From: an uncultured Pseudomonadales bacterium
GTDB taxonomy: Bacteria > Patescibacteriota > Microgenomatia > UBA1400 > PJMF01
DNA length: 64,000 nt
Assembly (NCBI GenBank): GCA_964620965.1
Contig: CAZUHV010000002.1
Coordinates: 48,863 to 112,862, forward strand
Direction: 5' to 3'
The translations under genes and the position numbers were made by a program. The notes under the pieces are model-generated. The model was not told the DNA's origin. It ran no database searches and saw only the letters and a list, made by a program, of their open reading frames with translations. Shown one piece after another: positions 5,223 to 16,174 of this stretch (position 1 is its first letter; the number at the start of each line of letters is the position of its first letter).

Positions 5223-6416
5223 ATGAAAATTTTAATGCTTACCCCATATTTACCATATCCGTTACTTTCTGGTGGACAGATAAGAACATACAACTTGCTT
5301 AAAAAATTAGCAAATAAACATGAAGTCACTCTTTTTTCATTGATAAAAAGCGAAGAAGAAAAAGAATATATTCCAGAATTAAAAAAATACTGCTCAAAAG
5401 TACGAGTTTTTAAGCGTTCCGAAAAGCCATTTACTCTAAAAAATATTTTCAAAACAGCTTTTTCATCTTATCCATTCTTGGTTATTAGAAACCACGCTCC
5501 ACAAATCATTAGTGCTGTAGAAACAGAACTTCAGTCGGAAAAATATGACTTAATTCATGCCGAGACCTTTTACATGATGCCTCATATTCCAAAAACAAAC
5601 ATTCCAACTATTCTTGTTGAGCAAACAATTGAGTATTTGGGTTATGAAAGTTATGCTAAAAAAACTCCATTTTTCCTCAGACCTATACTGAACATAGATA
5701 TTGAAAAAATTAGAAGGTGGGAAAAATTTTACTGGAACGCCTGCGATACACTCATTGTTATGAGCGAGGAAGACAAAAAATACATCGGAAAAGAAATTGG
5801 TGATTCAAAAAAAATTGAAGTTGTTGCAAATGGGGTAGATACTAGCTGGTTTGAAGAAATTAAGAAAAAAGTAACAAAAGTTCCAACTATACTCTCTGTA
5901 GGCACTTTTAAGTGGCTCCCAAATGTTGAAGCAGTAAAATTCTTAGTTACGAAAGTGTGGCCACTTGTGAAAAAAGAGTTACCAAATGTGCAACTAAAAA
6001 TTGTTGGAAATGCACCAACCGAAGATGTCTATAAATACGAAAAAGATGATTCTACAATTACTGTTATCGGCAGAATTCCAGATATCAGAGATGCATTTGC
6101 AACATCAGATGTTTTAATGGCCCCAGTATTTAGCGGCAAAGGGACAAGATACAAAGTTTTAGAAGCTATGGCTTCTGGAACACCAATTGTTGCTACAACA
6201 ACTGCTGTGGAAGGTTTGGAAGTCGAAAATGGAGTTCATGTCATGACTAGCAATACCCCAGAAGGAATGGCAAAACTTGCTGTTGAGCTTCTGAACGACC
6301 AAGAAAAAAGAAAAAAAATGGCAATAAATGGCAAAAAATTTGTTAAAGAAAATTATGACTGGTCACTTATTTCGCACAAACTTGATATGATCTACCAAAG
6401 AATTGGAAGTAAATAA
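5223..6416 (+). CDS. glycosyltransferase family 4 (GT-B)
   Basis: MKILMLTPYLPYP...SGGQ N-terminus. C-terminal EAMASGTPIV...E motif of GT4/GT1 retaining glycosyltransferases. Confidence 0.75.
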   Translation: MKILMLTPYLPYPLLSGGQIRTYNLLKKLANKHEVTLFSLIKSEEEKEYIPELKKYCSKVRVFKRSEKPFTLKNIFKTAFSSYPFLVIRNHAPQIISAVETELQSEKYDLIHAETFYMMPHIPKTNIPTILVEQTIEYLGYESYAKKTPFFLRPILNIDIEKIRRWEKFYWNACDTLIVMSEEDKKYIGKEIGDSKKIEVVANGVDTSWFEEIKKKVTKVPTILSVGTFKWLPNVEAVKFLVTKVWPLVKKELPNVQLKIVGNAPTEDVYKYEKDDSTITVIGRIPDIRDAFATSDVLMAPVFSGKGTRYKVLEAMASGTPIVATTTAVEGLEVENGVHVMTSNTPEGMAKLAVELLNDQEKRKKMAINGKKFVKENYDWSLISHKLDMIYQRIGSK

Positions 6417-6430
6417 AAGGTACCTAAACT

Positions 6431-7312
6431 ATGGCAAAAACAAAGCACCCCGATTTAGAAATTATTATTGTTAACTATAACAGTCAATTCTGGCTCAAGA
6501 AAACACTCTCTACATTAAAAGAGTTCTACTTAGACAAAACAAAGAAGTTTGTTGTTACAACTGTGGTTGATAATGCCTCAGAGGATGACTCTCTTAAAAT
6601 GATTGGAAGGGAGTTTCGTTGGGTTAACGTTATAAAACTGAAAGAAAATTTTGGCTTTGCTGTGGCAAATAACGCAGCACTTAGAGAAACAAAAGCAAAG
6701 TATGTTATGTTACTTAATTCTGATGTTGAGTTTACAGAAAAATCAAACCTTGATATTTTACTTCGGTTTTTAGATGATAAACCAAAAGTTGGTGTTATTA
6801 CTCCTAGAATTGAGTTTACTAACGGAGAAATAGACCCTGCGTGTCATAGGGGAGAACCAACAATTTGGGCCTCATTTACATACATGAGTGGACTAGAAAA
6901 TCTCTTGCCAACTAGTAAATGGTTTGCTGGGTATCATCAAACATATAAAAATTTCAGAAATATTCATACTATCGATGCATGTTCTGGTGCTGCAATGATA
7001 GTTCGAGGAGAACTTTTGGAAGACGTTGGACTTTTAGATGAACGCTTTTTTATGTATGCAGAAGATCTTGATTGGTGTAAAAGATTTCGAGAAGCTGGTA
7101 ATTTAGTTGTATATAACCCAGAAGTAATAGTCATCCACCACAAATATAAATCTGGCATTAAAAATACCTCTCAATCAATAGCAAGAAAAACTCGTAAGCA
7201 TTTTTACGACACCATGCTACAATACTATGACAAACACTACTTGGAAAGTTATCCAAGATTTGTTAGAAACATTATTAAGTACATTTTAGTAATAAAAAAA
7301 GGAGCACTATGA
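6431..7312 (+). CDS. glycosyltransferase family 2
   Basis: EIIIVNYNS...VVDNASEDDS and an NSD motif. GT2 fold. Confidence 0.75.
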   Translation: MAKTKHPDLEIIIVNYNSQFWLKKTLSTLKEFYLDKTKKFVVTTVVDNASEDDSLKMIGREFRWVNVIKLKENFGFAVANNAALRETKAKYVMLLNSDVEFTEKSNLDILLRFLDDKPKVGVITPRIEFTNGEIDPACHRGEPTIWASFTYMSGLENLLPTSKWFAGYHQTYKNFRNIHTIDACSGAAMIVRGELLEDVGLLDERFFMYAEDLDWCKRFREAGNLVVYNPEVIVIHHKYKSGIKNTSQSIARKTRKHFYDTMLQYYDKHYLESYPRFVRNIIKYILVIKKGAL

Positions 7313-7791
7313 ACTACCTTACTGAATTTAAAATTCAGCAACTTCGTACAAAAAATTTAACTGCTGCAGTTGAAACAGTAGCTATAACAATGGGAGCTGT
7401 AATGATCAACATGTTGGTCCCACAACTCTTACTTAAATATGTCTACACTGATCCAACAGCATTTGGTTTAGAAGCACCTGCAGTTTTCACATACCTTCCT
7501 TTAGTAACATATGCAGTTGCGCTTGGTTACTTCTTCTATGCAATGGTTGGAAACTTTGTTAGATGTAGAAAAGCAAACGCTTTAGAACAAGAATTTATTC
7601 TTACTGGCGGTTCTTGTGGTGACGGTTGTTGTGGAGATGGCTGTTGTTCTACTGAATCTCAAGATGAAGAAATCAGCGAAGATGAGTTAAAAGAACTCGA
7701 AAGAATCGTTGACGAAGCATTAAAACCATCAAAAAAATCAACAAAAGCTACTGCTAAAAAAACAGCAAAGAAGAAGACAGCTAAGAAATAA
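7309..7791 (+). CDS. small membrane protein with a Cys-rich GDGCC repeat and a lysine-rich C-terminal tail
   Basis: 160-aa ORF. ATGA overlap with the upstream GT2 gene, i.e. translational coupling. Two hydrophobic helices, then GGSCGDGCCGDGCC, an acidic segment and KKSTKATAKKTAKKKTAKK. A hairpin plus T-run terminator follows. Confidence 0.5.
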   Translation: MNYLTEFKIQQLRTKNLTAAVETVAITMGAVMINMLVPQLLLKYVYTDPTAFGLEAPAVFTYLPLVTYAVALGYFFYAMVGNFVRCRKANALEQEFILTGGSCGDGCCGDGCCSTESQDEEISEDELKELERIVDEALKPSKKSTKATAKKTAKKKTAKK

Positions 7792-7814
7792 TTTTGTAAA
7801 ATTTAGCATAAAAG

Positions 7815-7852
7815 TAAAAAACCGCCAGTTTTTAAAGCTGACGGTTTTTTTT
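7815..7852. terminator. bidirectional intrinsic terminator between convergent genes
   Basis: A-run, then CCGCCAG...CTGACGG hairpin (1 mismatch), then T8. It sits between the + gene ending at 7791 and the - gene ending at 7949. Confidence 0.55.
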
Positions 7853-7948
7853 GCTCATTTTACAATTTGTTGTGGATTTGGGCAGGCATTCTGCGTAAGC
7901 CACAACTCATATTTTAACAATTAAACGATTTAATTTTGATTCATTTTT

Positions 7949-10900
7949 TTATTGGCAACTACTCGGATAGACATAAATGTTATTCGAGTGTGCATAGTAG
8001 GGCGTATTCAGCGCCGTTACCCATATTTCGTACTGAAGACTACAATCCAAACCAGTCACTGTGTACGTTTCAGTATTTGCAGGCAAGTACACAAAGAAAG
8101 TATCGGCAGATGTAGTGGCTTTGTAGCCGAGCCGATACTCTAGTTCAATGTTTGAATTATCATTCCACACTACCGAAATAGAGGTTGTCGTTGAGGAAGT
8201 CTTATGAAGATCTGTTGGGGCATTAGGGGTTGGACCTTCAACTGGATCACAGGCGTTTGTGTTTGCACTTATAAAGTTGCTTTCCGAGTAATACAGATTG
8301 CCGTTATCCCAGTTTATCACGCGCACTACAAAATTGTATTGTGTTTCGCACTCTAAACCAGAAACTGTGTAGCTCTCAGTATTCGCAGCAACTGTGGGAT
8401 TAAACCATTCCCCACCATCTGCTTGATACCAGACTTCAAAATTATCCTCAATCGTGGAGTTATCGTCCCACGCGACGGTAATTGAGTTTTGGCCTACAGT
8501 TGTTACATGAAGGCCTGAGGGAGCGTTGGGAGTTGGGCCTTCTTGAGGAGGCGGCGAGCCACCAGGTTTTACTACCAAAGGGAGATATATTGCACCATCC
8601 CAAACAGGTTCAACATAACAACTTGGTGTAGAAACCGCAACCAAGTTTGGTGTAGCAGAGTCACCCCAGTTGTTGAAGGCCTTCACCAAGTAATGATAGT
8701 CTGTTCCACAAGGAAGGTCATTGAAAGTCCATGACGTTGTATAGCGGCTATTGATAGTCGCAACCAACGCATAGAAATCATCATCCACATGTTCGTAGAT
8801 ATGATACCCTTGCGTAGAACTATCTGTGCTTTGTTCCCACTCCACAGTGATTGACTGGTTGTCATTTTCCTCTGCCGACATGACAAATTGGCCTAAGGCC
8901 AAGTTGCCATTGTTATTTGAATACCCCCATGCGCTTTGTGGCATTTCGGGGGAGCCATCACAGTATTCGTTGTCGAACACTGCGAATGAGGAAATAACAG
9001 AATCGCCTTCGCCAACACTGATTGAAACACCGTTATTCAAGGCGTCATTTCTAAAGGTTGTCATGCTTGTTGAAAAACATTTATCTCCACCCTGATAGTT
9101 AGCGTGTTCCCAAACCTTAATTGACCAACCTGCCTTAATCCGCAAACTGGAAATTTGATCATTCCAGTTTGTTCCACACCAATTTGTTAAATCAGCGGCA
9201 GATGTTGGACCATGTCCACCGCAATTGGAAAACTGCACGCCTTCGTCTTGGTAGACAATGTAGTCATGAGTCTCAATAAGGGGATCTTGGCAAAGATCAA
9301 AGTTAAACACTTCTAGACCAACAATCTGATACGGCCAGCCAGCCGCATTTAGATTAGGCACGCTGCGATTAAAGCAGAATGCCTGATTGACGCTTTGCCG
9401 TTTGTCAATTCGGTACAAAACTACTGAGCTACCCGTTTTCAAACTCAGACTACCAGCATAGAAATACTGGTGGTCGTGAAAACCAGTGTAGTAGCTTGGA
9501 CCAGAGCCTTGATATCCAGTCCCGCTAAAGAATTGAACGTTAGGTGGTTGGGTTGGATTGGGTGGATCAGTAGGACAGACATCCCTGTTATACACGAAAA
9601 CTGACTGAATTTTCGTCTGCCAGTCATTGTGATCTTGTAGGTTAGGAACATTTGAGTTCCAACATTCACTCATACCCTGCATGTTGTCATCACGATAAGT
9701 GATAACCGACCAACCATTGGGGATCTGCATACTATAGCCTTCAGCATTTGGCTCGTTGTCGAGCCCTACATCAAAGGTATATAGCATCGCACCTTCATAG
9801 TTAGGGTATTGGAAGAGCTTAACAGCTCCACCACTACCAGTTTGAGGACCAGGAGGAAGAGGTTGTGTATCTGGAGAAGGCGGCGTATCAGGTGAATTTG
9901 TCGGGCAACTCCCAGCAATTATTTTTACACTCCCAACAAAATTAGCAATGCTAAAATGTGTCCCTGGGTAGAAATCTTTGTTCATATCCCACAGGTCACC
10001 AGAATAACAGGCAGACATTGTTGGAGGTGATTGTGGATTGTAAATAATCACACTATAACCTGGTTGTATGTCCAACGAATACGGGGTAAAATTACCAATA
10101 TTAATTTCTTGGCCGACTTGATTAGTCAACCAAATATTACCATTGCAATGTGTTTGGTCAAACAGACGCAAAAGCTCACTACTATGGTTGACTGATGAGT
10201 TATCTATACAATTCGAGTACGATGAAGGGTCAATGGTTCTGTAAATCCATGATTTGTAATTTGGGACATTTTGAAAACCCATTGTTTCCACATATCCACA
10301 GAAAGGAGTGCTTCCTGTAGAAATAATGGCTCCTAAAATGGTTTGACCATTTTTCACATATACAAGTGGACCACCACTGTCACCCGGACAAGTTGACCTC
10401 CCACTAATAACGGCTGCAACAAATTTATCTTGATTTTCGCTTTGAGTTAAATTATTGAAACTTATCTCAAGCAAATCATTTGATGTCTGAATCAGACCGA
10501 TATTGCCGTAACCCATTGCAACAAATTGTTCATGATTATCAATGTAAGTTGAAATATCGTCTGGCGTGCCAATTTGTATTGGTGGTCTTGAAGAAGGTCT
10601 AGATAACTTCCATAAAGCTAAATCAGTTTCCCCGGGGTTTAAATCTCCACCACTAAATGTAATTGGTTCACCATTTAGTTGAATTCTTTCAACATTTCCA
10701 TTCCAAATATGATCTCCACCAATTATGGCTGTATATACGGCATCACTACCATATGTGTAAAAGGCACCACCTGAAGTTGATCTCCAACAATGATGTGCTG
10801 TTAAAATCCAATCAGGATGAATTAAAACTCCGCCACAGAATTTATCATTTGTATAAGATTCATTTGTAGCAGTTAATTCAACCATCCAAGGATACTTACC

Positions 10901-11044
10901 GTTAGCATTTGTGCCATTATGAATTGCGCTAATCTTTTGTGTTGGATTTAAAACCAACATCAAAAATATCGAACAAAAAACTAGAAATACATGTTTAGTT
11001 TTCACTTTATTAACCTTTGTTGACAGTAAGCAATTTACTGTCAA
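7949..11044 (-). CDS. secreted trypsin-like (S1) serine protease with beta/gamma-crystallin-like repeats and three C-terminal fibronectin type III domains
   Basis: N-terminal signal peptide (KVNKVKTKH + VFLVFCSIFLMLVL). Catalytic His in LTAHHC and Ser in GDSGGPL. A Pro-rich linker, then Greek-key-like YxxxNYxG repeats, then three ~90-aa FN3-like repeats (PTPNAPSGLHVTTVGQNSITVAWDDNS... and PTPNAPTDLHKTSSTTTSISVVWNDNS...). Apparent TTG start at 11042-11044. Confidence 0.8.
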   Translation of the reverse strand: MTVNCLLSTKVNKVKTKHVFLVFCSIFLMLVLNPTQKISAIHNGTNANGKYPWMVELTATNESYTNDKFCGGVLIHPDWILTAHHCWRSTSGGAFYTYGSDAVYTAIIGGDHIWNGNVERIQLNGEPITFSGGDLNPGETDLALWKLSRPSSRPPIQIGTPDDISTYIDNHEQFVAMGYGNIGLIQTSNDLLEISFNNLTQSENQDKFVAAVISGRSTCPGDSGGPLVYVKNGQTILGAIISTGSTPFCGYVETMGFQNVPNYKSWIYRTIDPSSYSNCIDNSSVNHSSELLRLFDQTHCNGNIWLTNQVGQEINIGNFTPYSLDIQPGYSVIIYNPQSPPTMSACYSGDLWDMNKDFYPGTHFSIANFVGSVKIIAGSCPTNSPDTPPSPDTQPLPPGPQTGSGGAVKLFQYPNYEGAMLYTFDVGLDNEPNAEGYSMQIPNGWSVITYRDDNMQGMSECWNSNVPNLQDHNDWQTKIQSVFVYNRDVCPTDPPNPTQPPNVQFFSGTGYQGSGPSYYTGFHDHQYFYAGSLSLKTGSSVVLYRIDKRQSVNQAFCFNRSVPNLNAAGWPYQIVGLEVFNFDLCQDPLIETHDYIVYQDEGVQFSNCGGHGPTSAADLTNWCGTNWNDQISSLRIKAGWSIKVWEHANYQGGDKCFSTSMTTFRNDALNNGVSISVGEGDSVISSFAVFDNEYCDGSPEMPQSAWGYSNNNGNLALGQFVMSAEENDNQSITVEWEQSTDSSTQGYHIYEHVDDDFYALVATINSRYTTSWTFNDLPCGTDYHYLVKAFNNWGDSATPNLVAVSTPSCYVEPVWDGAIYLPLVVKPGGSPPPQEGPTPNAPSGLHVTTVGQNSITVAWDDNSTIEDNFEVWYQADGGEWFNPTVAANTESYTVSGLECETQYNFVVRVINWDNGNLYYSESNFISANTNACDPVEGPTPNAPTDLHKTSSTTTSISVVWNDNSNIELEYRLGYKATTSADTFFVYLPANTETYTVTGLDCSLQYEIWVTALNTPYYAHSNNIYVYPSSCQ

Positions 11045-11174
11045 CGATAAAAAAATCGTTTAATTGTTAATGAGCAATCTTTGTTTTTAAGACAAAGACC
11101 TATATTATAATAAATTTTGATATTTTAGTCAAGAAAATTGGTTAAAATACAAAAAATAATGATACAATATTTGT

Positions 11175-11786
11175 ATGGCAAAAAAATCAAAAATTAAAAA
11201 ACAACATATTAAAGTTATAATGTTACTCACTATTGTAGTAACTGTTTTAGCGATTTATTTTGGTCCTCTTTCTAAACCAAAAAAAGAGGTTTCGCAAAAA
11301 AATAGTTTTCAAAATTCAAACGCTGCACAAACATACAGTGGTACATATTTTTCTCTTAAGACTCCAGATAATTAGTATTTTGGTTCAGACATAAACGATG
11401 ACTATGAATGGATTAGAATATCTAGACAACCAGAAAAAAACAATGACAATATTGATGTGTCTAACATAGAAATTGTAGCAAGAAAAATACAAAATAATGA
11501 AACAATTAGCTCAAGAATTTCAGAATTGAACAGGGCAAAAAAAGAATATGAAGTAAATAAATCAGGGTCACTTGAAGATATTGAAAAAATTGAATTCAAA
11601 GGTCCAGAAGCCGTCAGTTATGTAATTCATATTAATATACCAAACGAAGAAATATCTGAAACAAGATCAGTTTCTGTCATTAAAAATGATATCATTTATT
11701 TATTGCGTTTAATATCATACGGAGAAAGTTTAGATCAATTATCAGAAGTTATAACTGAAAATTCTCTAATTTTCGACAATGTATGA
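11175..11786 (+). pseudogene. member of the MAKKS-anchored paralog family, interrupted by a single in-frame TAG (11373-11375)
   Basis: The six-frame ORFs 11175-11375 and 11457-11786 are in the same frame and separated only by one TAG. The N-terminus MAKKSKIKKQHIKVIMLLTIVVTVLAIYF matches the intact paralogs at 13164 and 13955. The C-terminal part (IIYLLRLISYGESLDQLSEVI) aligns with the paralog C-terminus (IVYEIEWILTAKNMNNLENII). Confidence 0.5.
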
Positions 11787-11806
11787 GACTCATTCCAGTT
11801 TACTAA

Positions 11807-12004
11807 ATGATAAAAAAAAATTTATTAGTAATTATTTTTATTGCAATATTAGTTAGTACTTTAGCAATTTTTGTTAAACCAAAATCAGTTAAAAATGAAG
11901 TTTTGACTGATCAATCTATTATTTCAGTTAATAAAGAAAAGACATTTGCAGAATTATCAATGGAAAAAGTTACTCAGAATGAAGACCGATATTATATAAT
12001 ATAA
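11807..12004 (+). pseudogene. 5' gene fragment (65 codons) of the paralog at 13955-14647
   Basis: An 85-bp stretch (11819-11903) is identical to 13985-14069, and similarity continues for about 190 bp. The ORF stops early and has no family -10 box upstream. Confidence 0.45.
11819..11903. repeat. 85-bp perfect direct repeat (copy 1) of 13985-14069
   Basis: Base-by-base comparison of the N-terminal coding sequence (aatttattagtaattatttttattgcaatattagttagtactttagcaatttttgttaaaccaaaatcagttaaaaatgaagttt). Confidence 0.8.
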
Positions 12005-12055
12005 AGACAATCATATCAAGTGAATAAGTGAATAAATGTTTTTAGTAAAGCTAAA

Positions 12056-12556
12056 TTATTTTTTTTTAGAAAGATAACTTTTTGTAAAGATAAAAGTAGC
12101 AATAAATAATATGATAGTATGTAGAACTACAACAGTAAAATTATAATCTGAAAAACTATACTTGGTTAAAAAATGAAAAGTATTCAAATTCTTAGGAGTT
12201 GACGTGAAATAAGACAAAATAGAAATAAATAAAGCAGCAGTGAACAATTTGTAAAAATTTTGTTCTATGAATTTTAATTTTAAAAGAATATTAAAAAATC
12301 CAAAAACTAATACCAACTGAAGAAGTACAACAAGATAAATATTTAAAGTGTCTGAATAGTAATAATAGCCATAATCATATAAAAAAACCGGTTGAGTAAG
12401 ACTATAATGAAAAATAAACATTGTAAACACTCTGAATAATAGTTCATTAATTATTGAGAAAATAAATGTACTAACTAAAATTGATAAAGTATTATTTTTT
12501 TCCATATATTTATCATTGTACCAAAAATTATCATTCAAATATAGAAGATTATTCAT
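12056..12556 (-). CDS. polytopic membrane protein (4-5 TM), island paralog 1
   Basis: 166-aa ORF, strongly hydrophobic and AT-rich. Paralogous to 12628-13113, with the same length class, TM pattern and C-terminal ...FIFTKSY / ...FYFFMNKK. Confidence 0.5.
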   Translation of the reverse strand: MNNLLYLNDNFWYNDKYMEKNNTLSILVSTFIFSIINELLFRVFTMFIFHYSLTQPVFLYDYGYYYYSDTLNIYLVVLLQLVLVFGFFNILLKLKFIEQNFYKLFTAALFISILSYFTSTPKNLNTFHFLTKYSFSDYNFTVVVLHTIILFIATFIFTKSYLSKKK

Positions 12557-12627
12557 TCAATAGCAACTTTTAACCATTCGATAAAAAGATATTTAAATCA
12601 ATTGCAACCTAAAAGATAACGGTAATA

Positions 12628-13113
12628 TTATTTATCATTCTTTTTATTCATAAAAAAATAAAAAGCGAAAAATATTATTAAGACATGAACAACTATTACA
12701 AAGTATGTGATAAAAAATGGTGCAAAGCCAAAAAACAATGTCTCAAAAAAATTTATTTTATAATACGGAGTTGCTGTACCATAAGAAATTATTGAAAGAA
12801 TTGTTGATGCAATGAATATTTGATAGATTTCCCCTTTTTGTTTTATGATTTTTACCAAAATTAAAAAAACAATTATGAAAAATACAAATTGAATAAATAT
12901 AAAGATTGAAAATGGAACATTCGCAAGATTAAAATATAAACGACCATAAAGGCTCTGTGAATAAAAACCAATATCAGGAATTAATGATTCGTAATAATTG
13001 GCAGCATAATAATTCGCAACAACGCGTAAATAATATTCATTCAATAATGATATAAAAAAAGCAATTAGTGCTAAAAAAAATTTTTTAACAAAAGTAAAAT
13101 CATTAGTTTTCAT
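12628..13113 (-). CDS. polytopic membrane protein (4-5 TM), island paralog 2
   Basis: 161-aa ORF. Paralog of 12056-12556. Divergent from the + strand family member at 13164. Confidence 0.5.
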   Translation of the reverse strand: MKTNDFTFVKKFFLALIAFFISLLNEYYLRVVANYYAANYYESLIPDIGFYSQSLYGRLYFNLANVPFSIFIFIQFVFFIIVFLILVKIIKQKGEIYQIFIASTILSIISYGTATPYYKINFFETLFFGFAPFFITYFVIVVHVLIIFFAFYFFMNKKNDK

Positions 13114-13163
13114 ACATGAATAATTATATCAATATCTAACTGAATGAATGTTATAATTTTTAT

Positions 13164-13904
13164 ATGGCAAAGAAATCAATAATTAAAAAACAACATATAA
13201 ATATTATTGTTGTCTTAGCAGTAATACTCACAGGTATAACAATATTTGGAAAGCAATACTTCTCAAAACTGCAATACAATACAAGATTCCATACTTGTAT
13301 TAATCAAGATGGCTCTACTTTTGAAACCACTGAACCATGTGAAAACTATTTACAAAAGGAAGAAACTTCAAATACTACCGTTAGCTTAGATCCTGATAAA
13401 CCAGATTTAGTTACCTTTCAAGCAGGATATTTTGCTGTAAAATATCCAAATAATTGGAATTATGTTGGTCATGATGGTGGTTTAGGAAATTTATTTGAAT
13501 ATCTACAAATAACTGATGTACAAGTCGAAGAAATGTATGATGGAAATCCAAATCTTCCGGCAATAATTTCCATTCAAGCAAATAAAAAAGGATTTTTCGG
13601 TGATTTTATTGGGAATGCTCATTATACGGGAAAATCTCTTGATGAATATATCAAAGATACTCTAAAAGAATTGGGGAACAATTACAAATCAAGAAGAGTT
13701 GATGGAACATCAGGCTGGTTAGTTGAAGAACCATCAGCTGATTGTTGTAAAATAAATATGTATCAATTAGTAATACATAATGACATATTCTATAATATTT
13801 CTTTAAATGTAAATGCATCAAATATGAAGGAGCTAGACGAAAAATCAAAAAAATATAGAAATGATTTTGATACAGTTCTTGATAACTTTAAATTTAATGA
13901 CTAG
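13164..13904 (+). CDS. signal-anchored (type II) surface protein, MAKKS family, with a variable C-terminal domain containing a CC pair
   Basis: MAKKSIIKKQHI + one TM helix, then a 200-aa hydrophilic domain. TATAAT sits 6 nt upstream of the ATG. Confidence 0.6.
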   Translation: MAKKSIIKKQHINIIVVLAVILTGITIFGKQYFSKLQYNTRFHTCINQDGSTFETTEPCENYLQKEETSNTTVSLDPDKPDLVTFQAGYFAVKYPNNWNYVGHDGGLGNLFEYLQITDVQVEEMYDGNPNLPAIISIQANKKGFFGDFIGNAHYTGKSLDEYIKDTLKELGNNYKSRRVDGTSGWLVEEPSADCCKINMYQLVIHNDIFYNISLNVNASNMKELDEKSKKYRNDFDTVLDNFKFND

Positions 13905-13954
13905 AGGTTAAGCATTTAATGAATTTATGACTTATTCTTGGTTACAATAGCTAT

Positions 13955-14647
13955 ATGGCAAAAAAATCAATAATGAAAAAACAAAATTTATTAGTAATTA
14001 TTTTTATTGCAATATTAGTTAGTACTTTAGCAATTTTTGTTAAACCAAAATCAGTTAAAAATGAAGTTTCGGTTGATCACACTACTGTTTCAGTTGATAA
14101 AGGAAAGACTTATGCAGAATTATCAATGGAAAAAGTTTCTCAGAATAAAGACGGAACTAGTACATATAATGGAGATTATTTTTCAACAACTTATCCAGAA
14201 AATTGGTATAAATGGTTTTTTGGTAGGGGAGTAAGTCTTGAAAACTTCCAAGTAAATTCGTTTTCTGAGGATAAAGTAGATGATATCTATGCAGAAGGTT
14301 CTTTCATAACTATAAATGTTGAAACTAAGGATTATAGACCCGTTTCAACATTAGAGGGGAAAATTGATTCTATAGAAGAATTAAAGAAGAATGCAGGTGA
14401 AAATACTAATGTAACATATAAAGTTGGACAATTTAAGTCAACACAAGCGGTTTACTCAGAAATTAAATCAAGTTCACATGGTTCAAAAAATCCAAGTTAT
14501 ATTAACACAATTTGGTTAATTAAAAGTGATATTGTCTATGAAATTGAATGGATATTAACTGCAAAAAACATGAACAATCTAGAAAATATAATATCTAGAG
14601 ATAAACTTGTTCATAATCAAATTGTTAATTCATTTGAATTTAAGTAG
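13955..14647 (+). CDS. signal-anchored (type II) surface protein, MAKKS family, with a divergent C-terminal domain
   Basis: MAKKSIMKKQNLLVIIFIAILVSTLAIFV TM anchor. TACAAT sits 6 nt upstream of the ATG. The C-terminal domain is unrelated in sequence to that of 13164. Confidence 0.6.
   Translation: MAKKSIMKKQNLLVIIFIAILVSTLAIFVKPKSVKNEVSVDHTTVSVDKGKTYAELSMEKVSQNKDGTSTYNGDYFSTTYPENWYKWFFGRGVSLENFQVNSFSEDKVDDIYAEGSFITINVETKDYRPVSTLEGKIDSIEELKKNAGENTNVTYKVGQFKSTQAVYSEIKSSSHGSKNPSYINTIWLIKSDIVYEIEWILTAKNMNNLENIISRDKLVHNQIVNSFEFK
13985..14069. repeat. 85-bp perfect direct repeat (copy 2) of 11819-11903
   Basis: See copy 1 at 11819-11903. Confidence 0.8.
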
Positions 14648-14687
14648 AGAGTCGAACATCAATTCCAATTTTGCTATAATCAGAAGT

Positions 14688-15041
14688 ATGAATATTTTGG
14701 ATTCAATTACATTTTTTTATCATCTTTATGGAGTACTTGTTTTGCTTTTTCTCTTCATATTTTTTGTTGTTTTAACATTTGTAGGGCTCAAGACAAAAAG
14801 AAGAGTAATATTTTTCCCTTCATTATTGATCGTAGTTATTTCCTTACTAATTATGTTTTTTGGTAGAAAATGTTGGTCGAGTGGGTGGGGTGGATTGTCA
14901 GGAATTGGTGATCAATGTACATGTAATGGCTTAGTTGTTAAATTTTATGTACCAAGCCCATTGTTATCGTATCAGTACACATGTTTTGGTATTGTTGAGG
15001 AGCCCGCTGAAATTTTTTCCTCAAGTAAATTTTACAGATAA
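14688..15041 (+). CDS. small two-TM membrane protein with a Cys-containing C-terminal tail
   Basis: ORF from the ATG at 14688 (MNILDS...). Extended -10 TGcTATAAT at 14672-14680, 7 nt upstream. Two hydrophobic helices, then CWSSGWGGLSGIGDQCTCNG...YTCFG. Confidence 0.35.
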   Translation: MNILDSITFFYHLYGVLVLLFLFIFFVVLTFVGLKTKRRVIFFPSLLIVVISLLIMFFGRKCWSSGWGGLSGIGDQCTCNGLVVKFYVPSPLLSYQYTCFGIVEEPAEIFSSSKFYR

Positions 15042-15076
15042 ACAAAGTATTACTTTATCTATAGTATAATGCATAT

Positions 15077-16174
15077 ATGAGAATCGGAATTGATGCTCGG
15101 TTATCAGGCGCTCAACACGCAGGAATCGGCAGATATACACAAAACTTAATTTTAGAATTGCTTAAAAAAAACAAAACCACAACGTATGTTTTGTTTTTCT
15201 ACACTCAAGAACAAGCAGAAGCAGTTTTGGGAACAGAAATTTCAAATAAAAAAGTTGAAATTGTTATTACACCCGTTCGTCATTACACAGTGACAGAACA
15301 ACTCAAGCTTCCAAAACTTTTCAAAGCACAAAAATTAGACTTACTGCATGTACCTCACTTTAATATTCCCATTTTTTATAAAGGTAAATTAATCATTACA
15401 ATTCACGACCTTTTATGGCACGAATACAAGGGTGGTTCTGTTACTACATTAAACCCGGTTATGTATTTCTTAAAATACTTGTTCTATAGATTAGTAACTA
15501 GAATTGCAGTTTACAAAGCAGAAAAAATTATTGTGCCTGCAGAAACTATTAAAAATACTGTTACTAAATTCTATCCAAAAACAGAAGAAAAAATTACAGT
15601 GACAAAAGAAGGTGCATATATTGTTGATCCCAAAAAACTTAAAAACTTACCTCAACTTAAAAACACACTTTTGTATGTTGGCTCACTCTATCCACATAAA
15701 AACTTAAAACTTATTTTGCAAGCATTACCATCACTCCCAAAATATAAACTTTTGATTGCCGGTTCAAGAAACGTCTTTCAAGATAAAGTGAGAGAGTATG
15801 TAAAATATAAACAAATTGAAGAACAAGTAGAATTTCTTGGATATGTCCCAGATGAAGACCTTGCAAAACTTTACCAACAAGTCACTGCACTTGTACAGCC
15901 ATCATTTTCCGAAGGATTTGGCCTAACTGGAGTAGAAGCAATGTCCTTTGGAACTTCTGTACTAGCTTCAGATATTCCTATTTTTAAAGAAATTTACCAA
16001 GATGTAGCCTTTTATTTCAGCCCTCATTCTATTGCATCTTTTATTCAAGCAGTTCATGCCCTTGAACAAAAATCAGATGCACAAAATAAAGAAGGGTTGC
16101 AACTTGCGAAAAACTATTCTTGGGAAAAAATGGCAGAGCAAACAATAGAGTTATATAAAGAAATTTTAAAATAA
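15077..16174 (+). CDS. glycosyltransferase family 4
   Basis: C-terminal EGFGLTGVEAMSFGTSVLASDIPIFKE motif, the GT4 signature. Confidence 0.75.
   Translation: MRIGIDARLSGAQHAGIGRYTQNLILELLKKNKTTTYVLFFYTQEQAEAVLGTEISNKKVEIVITPVRHYTVTEQLKLPKLFKAQKLDLLHVPHFNIPIFYKGKLIITIHDLLWHEYKGGSVTTLNPVMYFLKYLFYRLVTRIAVYKAEKIIVPAETIKNTVTKFYPKTEEKITVTKEGAYIVDPKKLKNLPQLKNTLLYVGSLYPHKNLKLILQALPSLPKYKLLIAGSRNVFQDKVREYVKYKQIEEQVEFLGYVPDEDLAKLYQQVTALVQPSFSEGFGLTGVEAMSFGTSVLASDIPIFKEIYQDVAFYFSPHSIASFIQAVHALEQKSDAQNKEGLQLAKNYSWEKMAEQTIELYKEILK

Follow-up and report, generated by a model that had tools for sequence, protein, structure and literature searches.

The 64-kb stretch of DNA analysed here (the window) carries a 7.3-kb island, spanning 7792-15076, that is specific to its lineage. 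It comprises a trypsin-fn3 protease gene on the minus strand, gene A, fragment D, the gene pair E and F, paralogs B and C, and ORF 14607-15041. The island is regarded as lineage-specific because the genes that flank it, at 7309-7791 and 15077-16174, are adjacent in related species, and because A, B, C, E, F and the protease occur in none of 48 related loci. A homolog of 7309-7791 lies directly upstream of the glycosyltransferase in at least six of the nearest species representatives. Ranked by the glycosyltransferase at 15077-16174, these representatives are Patescibacteria/Paceibacteria metagenome-assembled genomes with 77-78% amino acid identity, and the genome that carries the island is itself a Paceibacteria-like CPR genome. 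Base composition differs along the region, with 42% GC in the trypsin-fn3-crystallin protease gene, 21-29% in the genes of the family to which A, B and C belong and 33-36% in the flanking genes.

All members of this family share one architecture, consisting of a short basic N-terminus, a single transmembrane (TM) helix, a variable linker and a domain of about 150-170 residues. Paralogs B (13164-13904, plus strand, 246 aa) and C (13955-14647, plus strand, 230 aa) are intact and both end in TAG. Orthologs of B have 92% amino acid identity in the related contig L061 and 78% in the related contig L057. Pfam and NCBIfam scans of A, B, C, E, F and ORF 14607-15041 returned nothing significant, and a PDB sequence-profile search likewise returned nothing. 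A word-index protein search with A, its Trp restored, gave zero matches, a search with the A-type alignment returned only its own members, and family-profile scans of genome contigs and metagenome contigs gave zero confirmed relatives. Relatives came from a HMMER profile search run exhaustively over 1.84 billion representative proteins, which gave only 29 matches at E <= 1e-3. What emerges is a small, uncharacterised family of PsbP fold that travels with a large secreted peptidase.

The fold was approached through paralog C. Its single-sequence AlphaFold model was unusable (pLDDT 39), and a model built with a 31-sequence alignment (pLDDT 86.8, pTM 0.74) was used instead. In this model a PsbP/Mog1-like domain follows the N-terminal TM helix, and the predicted structure is an alpha-beta-alpha sandwich superposable on PsbP/Mog1. 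A Foldseek comparison against the PDB places PsbP first (2vu4, 1v2b and 2xb3; E ~3e-6 to 1e-5; TM-score normalised to the target at most 0.68), followed by Mog1, DcrB and LpqN. The Pfam family PF18933 (PsbP_2) matches 11 of the 31 members at E <= 0.01, with a best E of 2.7e-7. The N-proximal motif of the family, YFSxxYPxxW, is typical of the PsbP/Mog1 fold class. Judged from the model, the family is a small Patescibacteria-specific group of surface proteins that combine an N-terminal membrane anchor with a predicted PsbP/Mog1-like domain. The likeness to PsbP-like proteins (PF18933; Mog1/PsbP/DcrB/LpqN-type fold) thus lies in the predicted fold of C and in the PF18933 matches, but there are also clear differences. 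The copies in the window fall below the Pfam threshold (B scores 13.5 bits, where the cut-off is 27, with E = 0.07; neither A nor C is matched), they carry an N-terminal TM anchor, they are arranged in tandem beside a large secreted peptidase, and they have no link to photosynthesis.

Gene A (11175-11810, plus strand) is the member whose reading frame is broken. The initial annotation placed an amber codon, TAG, at 11373-11375 between two ORFs of the same frame, 11175-11375 (66 aa, ATG start) and 11457-11786 (109 aa, GTG start), and this description is correct: the two starts are 282 bases (94 x 3) apart, and translation through the TAG does give the 204 codons with one internal stop that had been described. 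The 66 codons before the TAG (11175-11372) encode the basic N-terminus, the TM anchor, the linker and the first beta-strand motif (YFSLKTPDN). The frame is open again immediately past the TAG, from 11376, and the 136 open codons that follow (11376-11783), which contain ORF 11457-11786, would encode most of the PsbP-like domain. Local composition is 28% GC, for which the expected spacing of stops is about 11 codons, and the probability of 136 open codons arising by chance is about 3e-6. The 212 codons of 11175-11810 contain 3 stops in the frame of gene A; the two remaining forward frames contain 14 and 27.

The statement that gene A is split by a single stop holds for the TAG but not for the rest of the gene. 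The TGA at 11784-11786, which had been taken as the natural end, is premature as well, because the next seven codons, DSFQFTK, keep matching the family C-terminus. These residual codons and the ancestral stop, a TGA at 11808-11810, occupy 11787-11810, and they still encode the family C-terminal motif F(D/N)xI(L/I/V)(D/S)(S/T)F(K/E)F(K). The second stop falls in a conserved hydrophobic column (13 Leu, 7 Ile and 5 Val), for which TTA is probably the simplest ancestral codon. Gene A carries two premature stops, TAG and TGA, and zero frameshifts.

The residue that the TAG replaces can be read from the paralogs and from more distant relatives. At the site, the DNA alignment has CCAGATAATTAGTAT in A, CCAAATAATTGGAAT in B and CCAGAAAATTGGTAT in C, with TGG in both B and C. 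In an alignment of 29 sequences (27 of the 29 profile matches together with B and C from the window) the TAG column is the last position of the motif YFSxxYPxNW, and it is occupied by Trp in 26 sequences, Leu in two and Phe in one. Given TGG in both paralogs and Trp in 26 of 29 members, a single G>A transition (TGG>TAG) suffices to explain the stop. The Tyr of the YP motif is likewise found in 26 of 29 members; gene A has Thr at this position, which may, like the second stop, be a sign of lost function. In the model of C the TAG position corresponds to W85, just past the first two beta-strands.

Homology extends across the stop. With paralog C as query, tblastn is colinear through the TAG from 11175 to 11801 of the window (E = 2.8e-13), in keeping with the proposal that the two halves of A are colinear with the paralogs. 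The further claim that both parts align with the intact paralogs is sound for the N-terminal part, which scores z = 13.6 with B and z = 17.7 with C against shuffled sequences; for the C-terminal part it is sound with C (z = 4.3, reached by 1 of 500 shuffles) but weak with B (z = 1.4). The C-terminal part has independent backing from a protein beyond the window, P0018, which matches A with 37% identity over 158 aa (E = 4e-26). Taken whole, the A protein has 35-36% identity to the intact proteins P0018 and P0024, and no close ortholog of A (above 40% identity) from another strain was found.

The 5' end of gene A is well preserved, and together with 17 nt of upstream sequence it has 85% DNA identity to B. 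A promoter-like element of the extended -10 type, TGnTACAAT (11160-11174, plus strand), ends 6 nt 5' of the ATG, without a Shine-Dalgarno sequence. The same arrangement, TGnTAYAAT ending 6 nt 5' of an ATG that lacks a Shine-Dalgarno sequence, is present in all three paralogs (11160-11177, 13149-13166 and 13940-13957). The pattern TAYAAT-N5-TATGGCAAARAAATCAAWAAT occurs three times in the window (at 11163, 13152 and 13943) versus zero occurrences expected by chance. The 5' segments of the paralogs have 84-85% DNA identity over 50-61 nt; the proteins are only about 25% identical overall. A promoter role for the TGnTAYAAT element may be inferred, and the arrangement suggests that the paralog transcripts are leaderless.

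The region between the divergent protease gene and gene A (11019-11174) has counterparts in two other genomes (L057:1400-1582 and L063:7765-8006) and is far better conserved across the three than are the flanking genes. It contains a perfect 11-nt palindrome, GTTGACAGTAA-N5-TTACTGTCAAC, at 11019-11045, with a symmetric G/C>A/T change in L057, and a second element, TCTTTGTTTT-N-AAGACAAAGA, at 11078-11098. An Rfam scan of 10900-12100 yielded no credible RNA family. This conserved palindromic region may function as an operator or as a 5'-UTR hairpin.

Gene A is followed directly by fragment D (11807-12004, plus strand), a 65-codon, 3'-truncated copy of a C-type paralog that has 91% DNA identity to 13972-14155 and whose homology ends near 11990. 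D was also considered as a 5'-truncated gene. This was rejected, because its MIKK... sequence is the usual start of the family and its ATG overlaps the ancestral stop of A (ATGA); on these features D is read as truncated at the 3' end only. The truncation point abuts an oppositely oriented pair of genes, E (12056-12556, minus strand) and F (12628-13113, minus strand), each encoding a small polytopic membrane protein with no family assignment. E and F are paralogs of each other (35% identity over 71 aa, E = 3e-6). The pair (12056-13113) splits the array, and it is absent from the L057 and L063 arrays.

The TAG can be followed in several independent data sets. Six Logan runs, assembled independently and drawn from at least four accession series, have the same TAG as the window. 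The exact 66-aa and 109-aa products are found in Logan contigs from runs SRR10580904, SRR10580905, SRR32005136, SRR10807893 and SRR11577119, and an NCBI contig of 351,388 bp is a further recorded source of both. The contigs with the TAG match the window at 100% identity over the site, except for one from SRR11577119 (L007), which represents a slightly diverged strain with 11 differences in 6.7 kb and keeps the TAG. In this strain the neighbouring glycosyltransferase genes have 10 SNPs, every one of them at a third codon position; the sole SNP within A, at 11605, is a second-position change (Pro>Leu, n = 1). This lone change fits relaxed constraint on gene A and, at n = 1, is suggestive only.

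A search for an intact allele was made among about 15 billion proteins by exact look-ups of A with every single-nucleotide sense variant at the site (W, K, E, L, S and Y) and of the versions with the Pro>Leu change of the diverged strain, and none was present. These look-ups replaced an earlier argument from the absence of an intact allele in a listing of 90% identity clusters, which was rejected when the Pro>Leu variant of the 109-aa ORF was seen to lie in a separate cluster. One apparently intact A protein of 203 aa, with Gln at the stop (P0003), was also rejected. Its source, a 1.2-kb contig from SRR32005135 (L008), has TAG at the site and is 100% identical to the window, and the look-up reported the gene on this contig as not translating to P0003. 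The protein is evidently a gene-caller artefact, in which a TAG=Q code was applied to a short contig. Literature searches on the run accessions and on CPR pseudogenes found nothing.

Several explanations other than gene loss bear on these data. The initial annotation had allowed for a sequencing or assembly error, which has in its favor only the prior that single-base errors happen; the agreement of 11373-11375 in all of the independently assembled runs refutes it, and its probability is negligible. More room is left, in principle, for polymorphism within the population, with the TAG as the majority allele and an intact TGG allele persisting in some cells or strains, so that the gene would be segregating and not lost. 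The array does vary between strains, and the near-clonal contigs that carry the TAG sample little diversity. Yet every run assembly and the window have the TAG, the exact look-ups returned zero single-nucleotide sense variants, and the only full-length entry, P0003, comes from DNA with the stop, which together make a segregating gene quite unlikely. A reversible switch at the TAG was another suggestion, and gene A does sit in a variable surface-protein array, a type of locus in which phase variation is common in other bacteria. The site, however, is a point substitution in non-repetitive sequence (CCAGATAATTAGTATTTTGG) with no homopolymer, short tandem repeat or invertible element, and in the absence of a repeat tract slipped-strand phase variation does not apply. 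Unlike a phase-variable contingency locus, the site shows one and the same 'off' state in all assemblies, and the second stop would need to revert too; on-off switching is hardly worth entertaining.

Two further explanations would have gene A, or a part of it, still expressed in spite of the stop. If the TAG were decoded as Trp, Gln or pyrrolysine, through a suppressor tRNA or an alternative code, its exact coincidence with the conserved Trp column would be accounted for, and one gene caller did apply TAG=Q to arrive at a 203-aa protein. That protein, however, is the artefact of a 1.2-kb contig with DNA identical to the window, and the usage of stop codons in the window speaks against recoding: among the 56 stop-to-stop ORFs that reach 150 codons, TAA is the terminator of 33, TAG of 15 and TGA of 8, and those ending in TAG include B and C, at the normal C-terminus of the family. 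With all three codons working as stops, the standard code applies and recoding is not supported. TGA, a different stop that ends eight normal ORFs, also interrupts gene A. The three tRNAs of the window are Gly-CCC, Thr-CGT and Asp-GTC, with no suppressor tRNA (CUA anticodon) in the 64 kb, and a scan of same-frame ORF pairs found no further homology-supported case of an in-frame stop. In a large code screen (PMC8629427), the CPR lineage named as having a reassigned stop is Absconditabacteria, where UGA codes for Gly. A frequent terminator with a single homology-supported interruption in the 64-kb window is not what stop reassignment or programmed readthrough would present, and recoding is extremely improbable; the regulated readthrough raised in the initial annotation is not supported. 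A functional split or reinitiated gene, in which the cell still makes and uses a 66-aa anchored peptide or a C-terminal product (with GTG 11457 as its start, or arising from low-level UAG readthrough), would agree with the 136-codon open frame past the TAG and with the intact promoter-like element. The domain, however, is a single compact unit broken within its first beta-strand motif, and neither piece is predicted to fold as the family does. GTG 11457 has no preceding Shine-Dalgarno sequence, a C-terminal product would lack the membrane anchor/export signal present in all members, and the TGA removes the conserved C-terminal motif as well. The base directly after the TAG is T; in E. coli work, TAG followed by T is an efficient termination context. 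Continued use of the pieces is on these grounds very unlikely.

The reading that accounts for most of the evidence, and that is very probably correct, is that gene A (11175-11810) is a recently inactivated paralog, a young and ordinary pseudogene in a gene array of fast turnover. This agrees with the suggestion in the initial annotation of a recent nonsense mutation in a fast-evolving family, and its support comes from the position of the TAG at a conserved Trp, the second stop, the truncated paralog alongside and the strain-variable array. Several marks of a nonsense pseudogene are present here: an in-frame stop at a sense codon of the homologs, homology on both sides of it, a stop that is real in the DNA and, within the 64-kb window, a codon that serves as a stop. 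The course begins with one G>A transition that, as the alignment shows, turned TGG, the conserved Trp codon of the YPxNW motif, into TAG. With an apparently intact start, translation would then stop at 66 residues, and the product, which keeps the membrane anchor and the linker but only one or two beta-strands, would on the model of C be an anchor with a stub, from which the domain of about 150 residues could not form. The second stop at 11784-11786 removes the conserved C-terminal DSFxFK motif, and the neighboring copy D has lost its 3' two thirds. The mutation is carried by a near-clonal population that several sequencing projects have sampled. It is judged young because the 212-codon frame is open but for two stops, has zero frameshifts and retains an intact promoter-like element. 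The long open frame past the TAG would be equally expected if readthrough or reinitiation still allowed translation of the downstream part.

Nonsense pseudogenes in surface-protein families are a general phenomenon, seen for example in host-associated reduced genomes. Gene A resembles other bacterial pseudogenes of this class, in paralogous surface-protein families, in that a single-base change turns a conserved sense codon into a stop and leaves the remaining frame recognisable. Further points of likeness are the additional disabling change (the second stop of A), the presence of truncated copies nearby and the strain-variable gene content. It differs in residing in the genome of an uncultured member of the Patescibacteria (CPR), in an uncharacterised family. 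The phenomenon is ordinary, and as an isolated fact pseudogene A is of little import. It does document that gene birth and death continue within a lineage-specific surface-protein island, in a reduced CPR genome. For annotation, the two ORFs 11175-11375 and 11457-11786 are best joined and marked as a single pseudogene, and any database record of an intact protein that has Gln at this position is an artefact, of a kind that gives rise to falsely 'intact' orthologs.

The number and type of family members in the island vary among strains, which points to gene birth and death in a fast-turnover array within the 7.3 kb. A homologous module is found in two different genomes, on contigs L063 and L057, in which a large fn3/crystallin-repeat peptidase on the opposite strand is divergent from a PsbP-like array. 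In L063 (41.5% GC) the position of A is occupied by an A-type gene encoding P0024, which is 33% identical to A and intact, with the Trp and a full C-terminus; it is divergent from the homologous fn3 peptidase and is followed by a Cys-rich 243-aa gene and a B-type gene. In L057 the N-terminus of A is joined at the same position to an unrelated Cys-rich body, and a B ortholog comes directly after. A closer relative, L061 (SRR11524805, 95-98% nucleotide identity), has a glycosyltransferase with 97.6% nucleotide identity to that of the window, a further family member of 201 aa (L061:766-1371) that lies between its B and C orthologs, and a C ortholog with only 85% DNA identity, a pattern that reflects strong rate heterogeneity or recombination. 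A C-like member in L062 (L062:435-1081, ERR14369873) is split by a frameshift into two tblastn segments in different frames, and it may represent either a disrupted gene or an assembly error on a 1.2-kb contig. Taken together, the differences among these four arrays indicate fast turnover of content and sequence, with disrupted members recurring.

The Vlp/Vsa-type loci of Mycoplasma are examples of variable surface-protein arrays in which the 5' ends are conserved and some copies are silent or partial. The array in the window resembles them in its tandem paralogs with a conserved promoter-proximal and N-terminal segment and diverged bodies, in its disrupted or partial copies and, in L057, in the different body behind the same N-terminus. 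Unlike those loci, the window array shows no invertase, repeat tracts or recombination sites and no evidence of gene conversion; D shows ancestral states and no clear mosaic. The likeness to Vlp/Vsa-type loci is architectural only. A broader proposal is that the island represents a mobile, conserved CPR module in which the gene of a large secreted fn3/crystallin-repeat peptidase is divergent, via a strongly conserved control region with palindromes, from a leaderless array of PsbP-like anchored proteins whose bodies turn over by duplication, cassette replacement and decay, with A and D as silent reservoirs for recombination. It is put forward here as an unlikely possibility; if it were true, recombination involving A and D would diversify the cell surface of an episymbiotic bacterium. 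The preferred interpretation of A as a young pseudogene is retained.

Two minor observations concern the surroundings of the array. The coding status of ORF 14607-15041 (144 aa, TTG start) is doubtful; it overlaps the 3' end of C and fills a 430-bp gap before the glycosyltransferase, and the matching gap in L061 measures only 190 bp, with zero genes called. In the slightly diverged strain from SRR11577119, 9 of the 11 SNPs relative to the window are clustered in 170 bp (5783-5951) of the glycosyltransferase gene 5223-6416, all at third codon positions, and the cluster looks like a short recombination tract.
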